From NCBI GenBank assembly GCA_963828125.1, contig CAWHDP010000002.1, positions 1,248,001-1,312,000 on the forward strand: DNA of 64,000 bases, given 5' to 3'. This DNA is from an uncultured Chlamydiae bacterium. Its GTDB lineage: Bacteria > Chlamydiota > Chlamydiia > Chlamydiales > SM23-39. Under the pieces are notes generated by a model. The model was not told the DNA's origin. It did not search any database and saw only the letters and a list, made by a program, of their open reading frames with translations. The translations under genes were made by a program, and so were the position numbers. How positions within the stretch are numbered: position 1 is the first letter of the stretch; each line of letters begins with the position of its first letter. Shown here in pieces: positions 1,880-13,638 of this stretch.

Positions 1880-1903
1880 TTCAGTCCCCTTCGGGGCCTG
1901 AAC
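1879..1903. terminator. Hairpin with a cUUCGg tetraloop between convergent genes; also a dispersed repeat
   Basis: GTTCAGTCCCC-TTCG-GGGCCTGAAC followed by TTTTACTTTT. An inverted copy lies at about 29083-29104. Confidence 0.5.
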
Positions 1904-2699
1904 TTTTACTTTTGGGGTGGCCGCAGTATACAACCTCTTTTGCACGTAATGTCGGAAGGAGAGGAAAGCTCTGATCTAGCTTGTTTAAATCGATCTCTGG
2001 GGGGCGCTCCCCTTGGAACTCAAGGGCCTGGTGGACGGAGGTGGCAAACTGGAACGTCTCACGCCCCGTCCCCGCATAATAGTCTCGGAATTTAAAGAGC
2101 GACGTGTTCAAGTTCATCATCAAAAGCCGCGCCGGTACGCCAAAGGCCTCTGCGAGAATGATCCCGTGCAACGAACTGGATATGACCAATTTCGCTTTCA
2201 ATATTTTCCTTAAAATTTCATCCCAGCTCTCTGTTGGGTAGACGACATTTTTGTAGGGGAGGAATAAATACATCTCTGCTACATGGGGGATAATGATGTA
2301 TTCATATACCGGTTCTTCTCTTTTAAATTCAGGAAAATAGCGGGGAAATAAAAGGGTTGGATCTCCGTAAATCTCTGGACATTCGATCCCTAAATCCCAA
2401 AGGAGGCGCGCCGTCAATGGCCCTCTGACCGCATGGACTTCCAATTGCTTAAATTTCAAATCTGTCGTCCGCTCAAACAAAAATCCCGATCCCCAAATCA
2501 CATCTCCTTCCTCGGCGTGTTCGAGGATGGAGCCAATGCCAAAGAGCATTTTTTCCGGTGCGTGGGACAATGTTTCGCAAGGGATGCTTGCCCCGAGCAT
2601 CCGTTCTATTAACACTTTGGATAGATGATCTCCAAAATTGACGCTGCTATCATCGGGGCTCCACCAAAATAATTTCATCGCAAGAATTAAATAGATCAT
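1881..2699 (-). CDS. Polysaccharide pyruvyl transferase (ExoV/PssM-like)
   Basis: NFGDHLS, GIGSIL, IWGSG, VRGPLT, GDP, SSSLHGIILAEAFGVPA. The ATG at 2699 overlaps the upstream TGA (ATGA). Confidence 0.85.
   Translation of the reverse strand: MIYLILAMKLFWWSPDDSSVNFGDHLSKVLIERMLGASIPCETLSHAPEKMLFGIGSILEHAEEGDVIWGSGFLFERTTDLKFKQLEVHAVRGPLTARLLWDLGIECPEIYGDPTLLFPRYFPEFKREEPVYEYIIIPHVAEMYLFLPYKNVVYPTESWDEILRKILKAKLVISSSLHGIILAEAFGVPARLLMMNLNTSLFKFRDYYAGTGRETFQFATSVHQALEFQGERPPEIDLNKLDQSFPLLPTLRAKEVVYCGHPKSKSSGPEGD
1908..1935 (-). repeat. Half copy of the TATACTGCGGCCACCCCAAAAGT palindromic repeat
   Basis: The reverse complement GGTTGTATACTGCGGCCACCCCAAAAGT matches the left arm of the 23944 copy. 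Confidence 0.85.
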
Positions 2700-3400
2700 C
2701 TCCACAGCTGGTCAGCCACCCTTTTTACCTCAACCGTCTTTTTGAACAGCAAATAGGTCATGTTTTCGTGATACGGAATGCAAAGTTCGCAATTTTCGAG
2801 AAGATAGATCACCGCTTTTCTCGCCGAAATCCAATTGGCGTCGTTCAACAAAATATAGCCGCCGTACTTCACTTTCGGATAGTAGTGGAATGCATCGAAA
2901 AAAATCCCGTTTTCACTATGATTGCCGTCAATGTGGAGAAAATCGATGCTCTCATCTGCAAATAATGAGAGCGCCTCGGCGGAACTCATTCGACAGAGCT
3001 TGCACACTTTGGCGATCCGATCGACGTTCAACTGTTGGCGGAGCTGAAAATAGATCCAATTAAAATCTTCTCCCAACCACCAATGATAAAGCCTCGAGCC
3101 TACCTGAAATCCCCGAACCGCCTCCTCATTCGACCAGGCGTCGATGGTATAGACGATCCCCGTCTGATTGAGGGCGACCGTTTTGGCAATCACAGAGAGT
3201 GTGGCGCCGCCATAGGTTCCAATGTCTACCGAAAGCTCGGGCTTTTGTGCGCGGAGCAAATCGATGATCAGGGCCCCCTTCTCTTCCGAACACCACCCTT
3301 TATAAAAGGGGATGCCCCAGAGGATCTCCCTTTTGACAGCGTCCCACCCATAAAGGGGGCCAATGAGAAATAAAAAGAGGAGTCTATAAATCATGTTCAT
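2696..3400 (-). CDS. Class I SAM-dependent methyltransferase (Methyltransf_24-like)
   Basis: VDIGTYGG, IDAW, IDFLHIDGNHS, GGYILLND. Probable start MNMIYRLL at 3400, overlapping the upstream gene. Confidence 0.8.
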   Translation of the reverse strand: MNMIYRLLFLFLIGPLYGWDAVKREILWGIPFYKGWCSEEKGALIIDLLRAQKPELSVDIGTYGGATLSVIAKTVALNQTGIVYTIDAWSNEEAVRGFQVGSRLYHWWLGEDFNWIYFQLRQQLNVDRIAKVCKLCRMSSAEALSLFADESIDFLHIDGNHSENGIFFDAFHYYPKVKYGGYILLNDANWISARKAVIYLLENCELCIPYHENMTYLLFKKTVEVKRVADQLWR

Positions 3401-11531: not shown

Positions 11532-11538
11532 AGGATCC

Positions 11539-13638
11539 TTATGGGTTTTGAGGTTGCATTTTCACGACAGTCATATAAAGGGTCGGGGCTGCCCCTGCTC
11601 CGTTAAAAGTGATAGAAGAGCCCGTTACATTCACAAGGGCTAAAGTAAACGGCGGAACGCCCGTATACAAGACAATGACTGTTAATGACACCAAGTTGCT
11701 ATTTGAGGGGCTGGTCGCGATCTGATAAGTAAGCCCTGAAACGCCAGCCACCTGCAATTCAACGTTGGCAGCCGACGATCCCGATGCTGTGACAAACCCG
11801 AAACAGACCTGATAAAAACCGGTATCGTTCACCGAAACGACTCCCGAGGAGAGGGAGATTTTCGTATTAGGCGCTGTGTTTGAAAGGGTAGCTAGCGGGA
11901 CGGTTCCACCACTTGCAACAGGCCCGATGGAAGCTGTCGAATAGGCAAAGGCGAAATCGGGGATAAAGATCTGGGTAGGCCCCGTGGCGCCCGTGATGCC
12001 TGTGGGCCCCGTTGGACCTGTGGGTCCGGTCGGCCCTGTGACTCCAGGAGCCCCCGTGGGGCCTATGGGCCCCGTCGAGCCGGTGGGACTCTGTCCAATA
12101 GGTCCCGTCCCTCCAGTAGGTCCCGTCGGGCCTGTGACTCCTAAAGACCCCGTGGGGCCTGTAGGGCCCATCCCACCCGTCCATCCGGTTGGGCCCGTGG
12201 GGCCTGTAGGCCCTGTCCAACCGGTAGGCCCCGTGGCCCCTGTTGGACCTGTCGGTCCTGTGATTCCAGTAGGACCGGTAGGGCCTGTAAAACCCCCGGC
12301 GGGTCCCGTTCCGCCGGTCCCGCCGGCGCCCCCAGTCATCCCCGTGAAGCCTCCTCCCATCCCCATCGGGCCGGTGGGACCTGTGGGGCCGGGAAGGCCG
12401 GTGACTCCTGTAGCTCCCGTCGGACCGGTCGATCCCGTCAGCCCTGCCATACCGGTCAAACCCACCGAACCCGTTGGACCCGTCGGCCCTTGCGGACCTG
12501 TTGATCCGGCCGCCCCTATAGTTCCCGTGGCTCCCGTTGGACCCGTCGCGCCCGCGGACCCTGTCTCTCCGACCGGTCCTGTCGTCCCCATCCATCCTGT
12601 CCAACCCGCCGTCCCCGTCATCCCCGCCATCCCGGTAGGCCCCGCCGTCCCCGTCGATCCTGTCACGCCAGTCGGACCGGTCGTCCCCGCTCCCCCCGTG
12701 AGCCCAGCCATTCCGGCAGGGCCCGTCGCCCCGATTCCACCGGTAGACCCGGTAGAACCCGCTGGCCCAGTCGGACCGGTTGCCCCTGTCATCCCTGTAG
12801 CTCCCGCCGAACCGCCCCCCCCTGTCGGACCCGTTGGACCGGTCGGCCCCGTCCCTCCAACTGGCCCCGTCAGCCCCGTAGCTCCGGACGCACCGGCCAT
12901 CCCTGTAGGACCCATAGGGCCCGTCATTCCAGTCATGCCGAAGATCCCCGCAGGGCCTATGGGGCCGGTTGGACCCGTTGGGCCGGTCGGTCCGGTCGCT
13001 CCCAGAGCGCCCTGCAGACCTGTAGGTCCGGTCGGACCGGTTCTCCCCGTAGAACCGGTTGGACCCATCCTTCCAGTGGGGCCTGTAGATCCGGTGACGC
13101 CGGTAGACCCAGTGGGGCCTGTCGGACCGGTCAGTCCTGTTGGACCGGCGAGACCTGTAGGACCCGTGGAGCCGGTCGATCCGGTCGGCCCTAAAGCGCT
13201 TCCTCCGGTGGGGCCGGTTCCACCCGCTAGAGCCGTAGAACCGGTGGGACCGGTGGGGCCTCCCCTCCCTGTGGGGCCCATCGGACCGGTAGGCCCCGTA
13301 TTTCCTCCGGGTCCGGTCGAACCGGTGATCCCCTCGTTGCTGCCGGTCGGCCCCATTGGACCGGTAGCGCCAAAACCAGCCAGCCCGGTAGGGCCGGTCA
13401 CTCCCGGAGACCCTCCAGCGGGACCTGTCGGGCCCTTTGGACCGGGAGGCCCCGGCTTTGGAGCAGATCCGCAATCGCCGCATCCCCCTTTTGCGAGCCT
13501 TCCCCAATCTGCGGCAGAGACTGAGGAGAGCGGCTCGAAGAGTACGATCCAACAAAACGCGACACTCAAAAACACATACATGATGGAACTATTGGTTGCG
13601 TGGGGTAATTTTTTAATGGATCGGAGGAATCTATGCAA
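11539..13638 (-). CDS. Secreted collagen-like protein 3 (Gly-X-Thr repeats, BclA-type C-terminal domain)
   Basis: Hydrophobic N-terminus (the true start may be MYVFLSV at 13581), a CGDC motif, GXT repeats, C-terminal PDFAFAYST...[10 protein letters not shown]. Confidence 0.9.

Follow-up and report, generated by a model that had tools for sequence, protein, structure and literature searches.

What would a chlamydial genome make from three collagen genes interleaved with glycosyltransferases? The window that we analysed, 64,000 nucleotides of an uncultured Chlamydiae bacterium (contig CAWHDP010000002.1, positions 1,248,001 to 1,312,000), carries on its minus strand nine reading frames whose coordinates, order and labels, as given in a preliminary description made from the sequence alone, all held up, with Pfam backing each label (Collagen three times, GT2 with TPR, GT92, STELLO, Methyltransf_24 and PS_pyruv_trans). 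In our reading, to which we give a probability of roughly 55%, the product of the locus is a sugar-coated collagen-like fibre on the cell surface that would likely serve as a host-attachment or shielding nap, and we infer that this fibre would be glycosylated, capped and heterotrimeric and perhaps displayed on the elementary body. The genome is chlamydial, as suggested earlier, the 16S gene carrying a primer sequence that we take to be the Chlamydiae signature; a search of the genome for an [FeFe]-hydrogenase found none. An assembly artefact was considered and rejected: contigs from run X1, from which the genome may derive, align to the region with no gaps or changes in their long pieces, and collagen 2 falls within a single piece.

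With the longest reading frames, all eight junctions overlap or leave a gap of 7 nt, as had been described; with the likelier starts at the leaders, seven of the eight stay tight, the GT2-TPR and GT92 genes then being separated by about 90–100 nt, and the overlap between the STELLO and methyltransferase genes shrinks from 95 to 11 nt. Promoter and terminator counts at the locus are at chance level. The idea of a dedicated glycosylation kit was right in placing enzymes beside the collagens and too narrow in extent, as the kit is larger and comprises some 20 enzymes on both strands. Just upstream of the nine-gene set there is another block, convergent with it, that comprises twelve enzyme-like genes. 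Its last gene, on the plus strand, encodes a leader-bearing five-bladed propeller of GH130/GT108 fold (866..1879), next to a 714-aa GT2-like/TPR/propeller protein on the same strand with only its 3' part in the window (2..865), and beyond the window, upstream (L001:9345-18865), the block holds four GT25 genes, three Methyltransf_24 genes and two unassigned genes that bear leaders.

The only long collagens in the genome are the three at this locus, all on the minus strand: collagen 1 (5331..7322, stalk of 492 residues), collagen 2 (7319..9319, 493 residues) and collagen 3 (11539..13581, 493 residues; its longest reading frame starts at 13638, the likely start being 13581). They are the Thr-rich Gly-X-Thr proteins that they were taken for, with 157, 156 and 163 G-X-Y triplets and Thr at Y in 74, 64 and 65% of these. 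Each starts with a signal-peptide-like, Sec-type leader and a Cys-containing N-cap, and each ends in a BclA/C1q-like head; Ser and Thr make up 28–31% of the stalks and 24–32% of the heads, and a stalk has 0–1 Lys. The predicted length of a glycosylated fibre of this kind would be about 138 nm. When the head of collagen 2, the one that was folded (model pLDDT 78), was searched with Foldseek and VIA-align, both programs put the C-terminal domains of F-BclA (9h38; Z 17.2, rmsd 2.2, 130 aligned) and Bacillus anthracis BclA (Z 16) at the top, 3twi and 1wck (Z 16) being among the best matches, in keeping with the earlier assignment to a BclA/C1q/TNF jelly-roll. Identity between the heads and the BclA or F-BclA structures is 15–26%, and on the BclA_C model (PF18573; cut-off 38) the three heads give 29.5 bits (collagen 3), 20.1 bits and no hit, so that none passes; a search of the head alignment against longer proteins found nothing, which is weak evidence. 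As a homotrimer, the collagen 3 head scored 0.94 against 0.00 for the best control, with a pLDDT of 90 and at least 90% of contacts agreeing between runs; 20 of 30 solved homo-pairs attain the same mark, as does 1 of 23 single chains, and the pass may stem from likeness to solved BclA trimers. On this model, the heads are predicted to trimerise and would thereby nucleate the triple helix.

Among the enzymes, the GT2-TPR glycosyltransferase (10299..11531, minus) has a signal-peptide-like leader and, behind it, the SgtA-type architecture of a GT-A domain with a DxD motif (here DAD) and then TPRs, encoded beside a GPT collagen. Its closest solved GT domains are those of GmaR (22ao; E 1.5e-12) and SunS (7msn; E 5.8e-8), a flagellin O-GlcNAc transferase and a peptide S-glucosyltransferase, respectively; these relatives modify proteins or peptides and have the same GT2-plus-TPR layout, the match being confined, however, to the GT domain and the score on the SunS NCBIfam model being 37 bits against a cut-off of 350. 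SgtA itself consists of a GT-A domain and four TPRs and attaches O-GlcNAc to the Thr of GPT repeats (PMC7157674), and by analogy GT2-TPR is a candidate for the initiating Thr O-glycosyltransferase. Viral contigs were searched for GT2-TPR and gave none. The neighbouring GT92-family glycosyltransferase (9316..10197, minus; longest reading frame from 10302) has a leader and a DID motif and scores 85.5 bits on PF01697 (cut-off 23), and its protein matched none of the solved sequences. The accessory proteins include both halves of the eukaryotic STELLO protein, split over adjacent leader-bearing genes: on PF03385 the 347-aa N-half-like protein (3384..4427, minus) scores 57 bits, and the 299-aa C-half-like protein (4424..5323, minus), matching the later part of the model, 26.5 bits, just below the cut-off of 27.8. 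The latter has a GT-A/Fringe-like fold, its model giving a TM of 0.82 to a STELLO cluster and 0.55 to a Fringe-like cluster; the former is related to a solved transglycosylase (7yua; E 5e-25), which we take to be a GT75-type nucleotide-sugar ring mutase. They are followed by a leader-bearing class I SAM methyltransferase (Methyltransf_24; 2696..3394, minus; longest reading frame from 3478) and by a member of the polysaccharide pyruvyltransferase family whose N-terminus is short and hydrophobic (1881..2705, minus), with 60.4 bits on PS_pyruv_trans (cut-off 25.3) and 18.5 bits on CsaB TIGR03609, far below 213. For a neighbouring 525-aa family, Atlas leads reached 0.90 or lower. We consider it quite likely that GT2-TPR would add the first sugar to stalk Thr in the manner of SgtA, that GT92 would extend it, and that the GT25, propeller, STELLO and methyl- or pyruvyltransferase proteins would add strain-variable decoration.

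Two features had gone unnoticed in the preliminary description: the enzymes bear export leaders, and the stalks are locked in length. Signal-peptide-like leaders were found on 22 of the 23 cluster genes, against 411 of 1,695 background reading frames (24%) and 0 of 10 GT4 enzymes, by a hydrophobicity rule rather than SignalP; among ten leaderless GT2s, this rule also marked the first strand of four. Among homologues, 114 of 126 scored chlamydial enzymes and 0 of 8 scored non-chlamydial ones have a leader, three fused GT25 rows and two non-chlamydial GT2-TPR rows being set aside; for GT2-TPR, a hydrophobic leader is present in 32 of 34 chlamydial homologues and in none of six non-chlamydial ones. 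The leaders are made up like the collagens' own, with a basic N-end, a short hydrophobic core and a small-residue end, and lead directly into the first catalytic strand; one conserved methyltransferase is leaderless in all five of its homologues and in G000. Leaders on the chlamydial enzymes that have no counterpart in non-chlamydial homologues suggest that glycosylation probably takes place outside the cytoplasm. The enzymes would be exported, or anchored so that the catalytic domain lies beyond the inner membrane, an arrangement that we find reasonably likely; glycosylation would then follow translocation, and nucleotide sugars and SAM would be needed in the periplasm or vacuole. A DMT transporter was considered as a partner of the locus and rejected, since weak matches occur in 149 of 300 genomes, with 18 over the cut-off, and are unlinked; this genome has one with a borderline match. 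Its EamA-type transporters number eight, and a search for a SAM synthetase came up empty.

The closely matched stalks sit behind heads that are just 44–50% identical. Recent duplication or gene conversion as the source of the length lock was rejected for this genome, as fourfold sites between the three collagens agree at chance (0.26–0.27 against 0.26; synonymous sites are saturated), with the codon alignment within repeats uncertain; either process could have acted in G001 and in one G012 pair, where there is a small excess of shared synonymous sites. Among chlamydial collagen trios, 9 of 11 are length-matched within 3% while lengths across trios run from 170 to 1,819, the exceptions being the G366 trio (12.7%) and one G205 trio (5.8%), in a table that omits frameshifted, N-containing, contig-cut or very short collagens (L075, L076, G005, G319, G323, G141, G253) and the first of four G203 copies, and that divides the six adjacent collagen genes of G397 into two trios by order. 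The two trios of G205 pair by position in the head tree, and all three chains have shifted jointly, from about 225 to about 173 residues. We give no weight to a shuffle test (0 of 10,000) or a Fisher test, since neither takes shared ancestry into account. Stalks matched in length are what a mixed ABC triple helix would lead one to expect, and we give even odds that the three chains wind into a single such helix. Bacterial heterotrimeric collagen has so far only been suggested in the literature examined, as far as the sources were covered, and the part of PMC11923368 consulted makes no statement on it.

The chains might instead form three separate glycosylated homotrimers on the BclA paradigm, tied at their Cys N-caps, with equal lengths reflecting a uniform height of a nap or bundle. 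We think this rather unlikely. Heterotrimers are not obligatory, though: the head of collagen 3 on its own passes the homotrimer prediction, and several genomes show a single collagen (G004, G367, G326, G169, G302). Helix interruptions are shared by all three chains near the N-end only, at about 480 and 410 residues counted from the head; in the C-terminal third each chain has its own pattern, as separate homotrimers would allow; interface positions of the heads, too, are no more conserved among the three (18 of 48) than positions elsewhere (32 of 99). Separate homotrimers leave unexplained, however, that matched sets come mostly in threes, and a constraint on nap height fits poorly with same-locus copies that are separated by other genes and unmatched in length (626/224, 1212/675 and 114/445).

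The kit could mainly make some other glycan of the envelope, such as an LPS-like or capsular polymer or the glycans of other outer-membrane proteins, with the collagens as one client or as passengers of the island and the STELLO/methyl/pyruvyl block serving the polymer. G015 (79% complete) has STELLO-C, a STELLO-N/methyltransferase fusion and the pyruvyltransferase in unchanged order next to the same propeller genes, and no collagen was found there; G013 (94% complete, about ten contigs) has GT2-TPR and a propeller fusion with no collagen match; plasmid STELLO homologues sit among glycosyltransferase genes with no collagen annotated; and a second locus in the present genome has leader-bearing glycosyltransferases and no long collagen. 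Yet in 27 of 41 genomes no more than 1.5 kb separates a collagen head from GT92, the gene most tightly linked to collagens, and GT2-TPR sits among the collagen genes at this locus and adjoins G-X-T proteins in its non-chlamydial homologues as well, and we regard this other role as improbable. Still less probable, in our view, is that the enzymes, like SgtA, are active inside the cytoplasm, the hydrophobic stretch being a tether to the inner face of the membrane and glycosylation preceding export. GT-A enzymes need nucleotide sugars, and the enzymes by which this genome produces them are leaderless (3 nucleotidyltransferase and 14 epimerase matches); the locus contains no dedicated nucleotide-sugar exporter or other linked transporter; against this, the leaders resemble those of the collagens, their topology places the catalytic domain outside, and they recur in at least ten unrelated enzyme families.

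The surface fibre that we favour has relatives on several sides. Animal heterotrimeric collagens and C1q consist of paralogous chains with C1q-type heads, assembled and glycosylated after export from the cytosol. Several such chains are also found in Pasteuria ramosa Pcl, for which the part of PMC7743900 consulted goes no further than to mention heterotrimers as possible; unlike the animal collagens, the chains here show no hydroxyproline or lysine chemistry. In Clostridioides difficile SgtA-BclA3, likened by architecture, a GT-A and TPR enzyme adjoins a GPT-rich collagen with a Thr-rich acceptor stalk, whereas here enzyme and collagen both bear leaders, the three chains are length-matched with about 20 more enzymes flanking them, and the heads are C1q-like in place of the predicted transmembrane C-terminus of BclA3 (PMC7157674). 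The Bacillus BclA and F-BclA proteins (1wck, 9h38; PMC12357932) share the G-X-T stalk, the trimerising TNF-like head, the Ser/Thr-rich stalk and head and a nearby glycosyltransferase gene. The earlier comparison with the exosporium stands for stalk and head and fails for the N-terminus: in this diderm intracellular bacterium, the three collagens have Sec-type leaders and a Cys cap, and neither a spore nor an exosporium leader nor an F-ENA docking motif was seen. The consulted part of PMC4674009, on the Priestia bclA1 locus, does not mention glycosylation. Peribacillus plasmid p16118 and a Cupriavidus pauculus G-A-T locus place a full-length GT2-TPR (34–39% identity) beside a G-X-T repeat protein, but have one collagen each; the two Peribacillus enzymes are leaderless, and the Cupriavidus enzyme, with no leader shown, was set aside from the homologue count. 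The locus is a variant of the BclA/SgtA kind, with leader-bearing enzymes and a length-locked trio added.

Chlamydial surfaces have been described mainly from pathogens. Among 400 sampled chlamydial genomes, 64 have the BclA-like head; most of them belong to two families (38 of 90 and 12 of 68), and a search of the 29 genomes of the small-genome family f20 did not find it, G045 being left out of this survey and of those for STELLO and DMT; a whole surface structure of environmental chlamydiae may therefore be undescribed. Full-text searches, mostly of freely available papers, gave none that by its title or the start of its abstract concerned a chlamydial collagen. Tentatively, one could picture an envelope assembly line of ER/Golgi kind in these bacteria, in which C1q-like heads would nucleate an exported ABC heterotrimer and Golgi-type families would glycosylate, methylate and cap it outside the cytoplasm, with nucleotide sugars and SAM arriving through a transporter or from the host vacuole. 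We know of no bacteria that use soluble nucleotide-sugar glycosyltransferases or SAM methyltransferases outside the cytoplasm; if true, such glycosylation and a bacterial heterotrimeric collagen would surprise specialists, and a collagen O-glycosyltransferase that is exported could be put to practical use as a tool.

Across relatives, the collagen, GT92 and GT2-TPR genes travel together, as the preliminary description expected, and the nine-gene operon is not a conserved unit. Of 46 genomes with a close GT92, 41 also carry a collagen head, within 12 kb of it in 34; the tie of GT2-TPR to collagens is not exclusive, since among the 12 genomes whose GT2-TPR is closest, 5 show no long collagen. 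The methyl or pyruvyl cap proposed for the collagen is only a guess, because STELLO occurs in 9 of 400 chlamydial genomes and in the other eight is never on the contig of a collagen head. The final residues of the pyruvyltransferase-family gene extend into a dispersed repeat.

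Sequence and predictions point to a chlamydial collagen fibre system that is real and widespread, with exported Gly-X-Thr (G-X-T) chains, trimerising BclA-like heads, enzymes that carry leaders, co-inheritance with GT92 and GT2-TPR, and locked stalk lengths; it would work much as BclA does with SgtA. The three collagens of the genome under study, its only long ones, share one layout: a leader resembling a signal peptide is followed by a short cap that contains Cys, then by the stalk and a ~140-residue head. The stalks comprise 156–163 triplets, the majority GPT, with nearly no charged residues, and would be ~138 nm long if they scale like F-BclA, where 701 residues span 196 nm (PMC12357932). 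The preliminary description had proposed a BclA-type head, and a structure search with the predicted fold of the collagen 2 head (pLDDT 78) bears this out: the top match is the F-BclA head (Z 17.2, rmsd 2.2, 130 residues), followed by the B. anthracis BclA head (Z 16), and TNF and C1q proteins rank below both. Predicted as a complex of three copies, the collagen 3 head scored 0.94, whereas each of three controls scored 0.00; its contacts were consistent and its pLDDT was 90. The mark was reached by 20 of 30 true homo-pairs and one of 23 single chains in calibration, and the pass may stem from resemblance to solved BclA trimers. The likeness to BclA and SgtA fails on the N-terminal targeting signal, the predicted location of the enzymes and the Pfam BclA_C cut-off, which none of the three heads reaches. 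No description of such a system in chlamydiae was found in the open literature, judged by titles and the beginnings of abstracts.

The genome (2.37 Mb in two contigs, GC ~49%) is present in soil metagenome runs from one study, and long pieces of contigs from run X1, its possible source, match the region gap-free; its 16S gene carries a Chlamydiae primer signature. All nine ORFs of the cluster (window 1881..13638) were recovered on the minus strand in the order claimed, collagen 3, GT2-TPR, GT92, collagen 2, collagen 1, STELLO-C, STELLO-N, methyltransferase and pyruvyltransferase, each label being backed by Pfam. The tight junctions described earlier hold with longest-ORF starts, which give 7-nt gaps or overlaps at all eight, but collagen 3 (13581), GT92 (about 10197) and the methyltransferase (3394) probably start later, at hydrophobic leaders, which would open one gap of ~90–100 nt. 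The locus exceeds these nine genes, with an upstream enzyme block, for the most part on the opposite strand, of four GT25, three Methyltransf_24, a GT2-like/TPR/propeller fusion, a propeller of GH130/GT108 fold and two genes without family assignment. The two convergent blocks meet at window 1877–1933, where two short repeats, one a hairpin and each with many genomic copies (137 BLAST hits), abut and encode the last residues of the pyruvyltransferase. After the enzyme block, with FKBP beside it, lies an inverse-autotransporter barrel gene with no obvious passenger (L001:5946-7574), also seen close to the locus in 14 of the 44 genomes whose neighbourhoods were fetched; as a lead, it is a possible outer-membrane exit or anchor of the fibre.

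A profile built from 16 heads matched 64 of 400 chlamydial genomes, with 38/90 in family f7, 12/68 in f1, to which the studied genome belongs, 6/46 in f22, and none in f20 (0/29) or f23 (0/35). Close GT92 orthologues (E <= 2e-59, set apart by a gap from the remaining matches) occur in 46 genomes, 41 of them also with the head, at a distance of <=12 kb in 34 and <=1.5 kb in 27. Across 44 surveyed neighbourhoods, collagen, GT92, GT2-TPR, GT25, methyltransferases and propellers recur in varying order. Several findings speak against a dedicated nine-gene unit: STELLO-N is found in just nine of the 400 genomes, and among the other eight, a head match lies on a separate contig in four and is absent in four. 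One genome of 79% completeness (G015) has a STELLO/methyl/pyruvyl block ordered as in the studied genome, with no collagen found, and of the 12 genomes whose GT2-TPR is closest, five have one weak collagen match at most, though such repeats assemble poorly. Judged by the linkage counts, the distribution of STELLO-N, G015 and the GT2-TPR genomes without collagen, the core is collagen, GT92 and GT2-TPR, with the last four genes as an accessory block for which the collagen is only a putative target.

Several other arrangements were seen in relatives. An uncharacterised secreted family of ~525 aa (L055:11004-12569 and many loci) recurs by their collagens, often in tandem, with a leader in 37/37 and with a propeller and an FN3-like domain as Atlas leads; it is absent from the collagen locus of the studied genome, which has one distant copy elsewhere. 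At L029:4806-17310 (G039:C12), three collagens with unrelated heads, the longest of 1,815 aa, lie beside a leaderless methyltransferase-GT2-TPR fusion, in a stretch that looks foreign for a chlamydial genome. Heads with little or no stalk occur at L085:5148-6492 and L086:5478-7684, G253 having two tandem stalk-less genes and G141 three short tandem ones. Two GT2-TPR paralogues that share 40% identity and have no leader lie in tandem at a locus without collagen in a Parachlamydiales bacterium record (L048:8899-11269) and represent a second, apparently cytoplasmic, subfamily.

The stalks of the studied trio measure 492, 493 and 493 residues, and the heads are just 44–50% identical; agreement at fourfold-degenerate sites is 0.26–0.27, versus 0.26 by chance, and the longest common DNA words are 18–21 nt, with 33–39 gap columns per pairwise alignment. 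In the head tree, the three heads form a single clade (98/98), which places the origin of the trio within its own lineage and makes it old. Other trios have stalks of 1314/1313/1320, 310/311/312, 1815/1817/1819, 445/447/449, 232/224/219, 170/175/173, 280/279/282, 542/535/538, 541/540/535 and 298/291/262 residues; counting the studied trio, 9 of 11 are matched within 3%, with synonymous sites saturated in most. Adjacent collagen pairs match as well (429/427, 833/825), and copies with other genes in between mostly do not (626/224, 1212/675, 114/445). In the tree, chains at corresponding positions of the two G205 trios group together (supports 100/98, 81/91, 80/73), yet the length shift is shared by all three chains, a joint change that a mixed triple helix predicts. 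Against this, homotrimer prediction scores well, loci with a single collagen exist, and helix interruptions coincide near the N-end only. On balance, the odds that the three chains assemble into a mixed ABC heterotrimer look even to us; in the one paper found on the point, bacterial collagen heterotrimers are raised as a mere possibility (PMC7743900).

The closest solved enzymes to the cluster GT2-TPR are GmaR and SunS, and its layout is common to SgtA, which puts O-GlcNAc on Thr within the GPT repeats of BclA3 (PMC7157674). We propose, with a probability of roughly 0.8, that GT2-TPR would begin O-glycosylation on Thr and GT92 extend it; capping of the glycan by the accessory block is a more tentative suggestion, somewhat less likely than not. 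STELLO-N matches the solved transglycosylase 7yua (E 5e-25), presumably a GT75-type pyranose-furanose mutase, and STELLO-C resembles STELLO and Fringe-like folds in structure comparison; together they may produce a furanose sugar and attach it to an acceptor.

The enzymes probably act outside the cytoplasm. A hydrophobicity rule flagged leaders in 22 of 23 cluster genes, versus 411 of 1,695 background ORFs and none of 10 GT4 enzymes; because the rule misfires on first beta-strands, we added as a second measure the hydrophobicity of the segment that precedes the catalytic domain. This segment is hydrophobic in both cluster GT2s, versus 2/10 other GT2s of the genome, and among homologues in the fetched loci it is so in GT2-TPR (32/34), GT92 (27/28), GT25 (15/17), propellers (9/11), fusions (9/9) and methyltransferases (7/7 for three types, 0/5 for a fourth). 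The start of the one leaderless cluster methyltransferase (L001:12282-12962) overlaps the gene upstream, and the leader is also absent in 5/5 homologues. Since non-chlamydial homologues have no such stretch (0/6 GT2-TPR, 0/2 STELLO), the leader looks like a chlamydial addition spanning unrelated enzyme families; two of the non-chlamydial GT2-TPR loci contain a G-X-T repeat protein. A second glycosyltransferase cluster of the studied genome (L106:2251-12611, about 994–1005 kb of contig C2), with no long collagen, comprises two GT2, a GT11 and a GT6, the GT2s and GT11 having leaders.

Extracytoplasmic glycosylation would require a supply of donors in the periplasm or vacuole. Nucleotide-sugar synthesis genes are present and leaderless, and no match to SAM synthetase was found in the genome (95% completeness). 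One of its eight EamA-type transporters (L105:6763-7698) has borderline nucleotide-sugar-transporter and TPT matches, and weak matches occur in 149 of 300 chlamydial and none of 14 control genomes; these are candidate genes, none of which picks out the route.

Elsewhere in the window, a surface-type gene run (22684-31026) encodes a GH18-like protein, an autotransporter, a Legionella-type outer-membrane protein, a 526-aa protein with a Peptidase_S74 chaperone domain and an ankyrin protein. An RHS-repeat protein of 2,823 aa with DUF6531 (31848-40319) is encoded in a low-GC stretch and is followed by an integrase (41541-42623).
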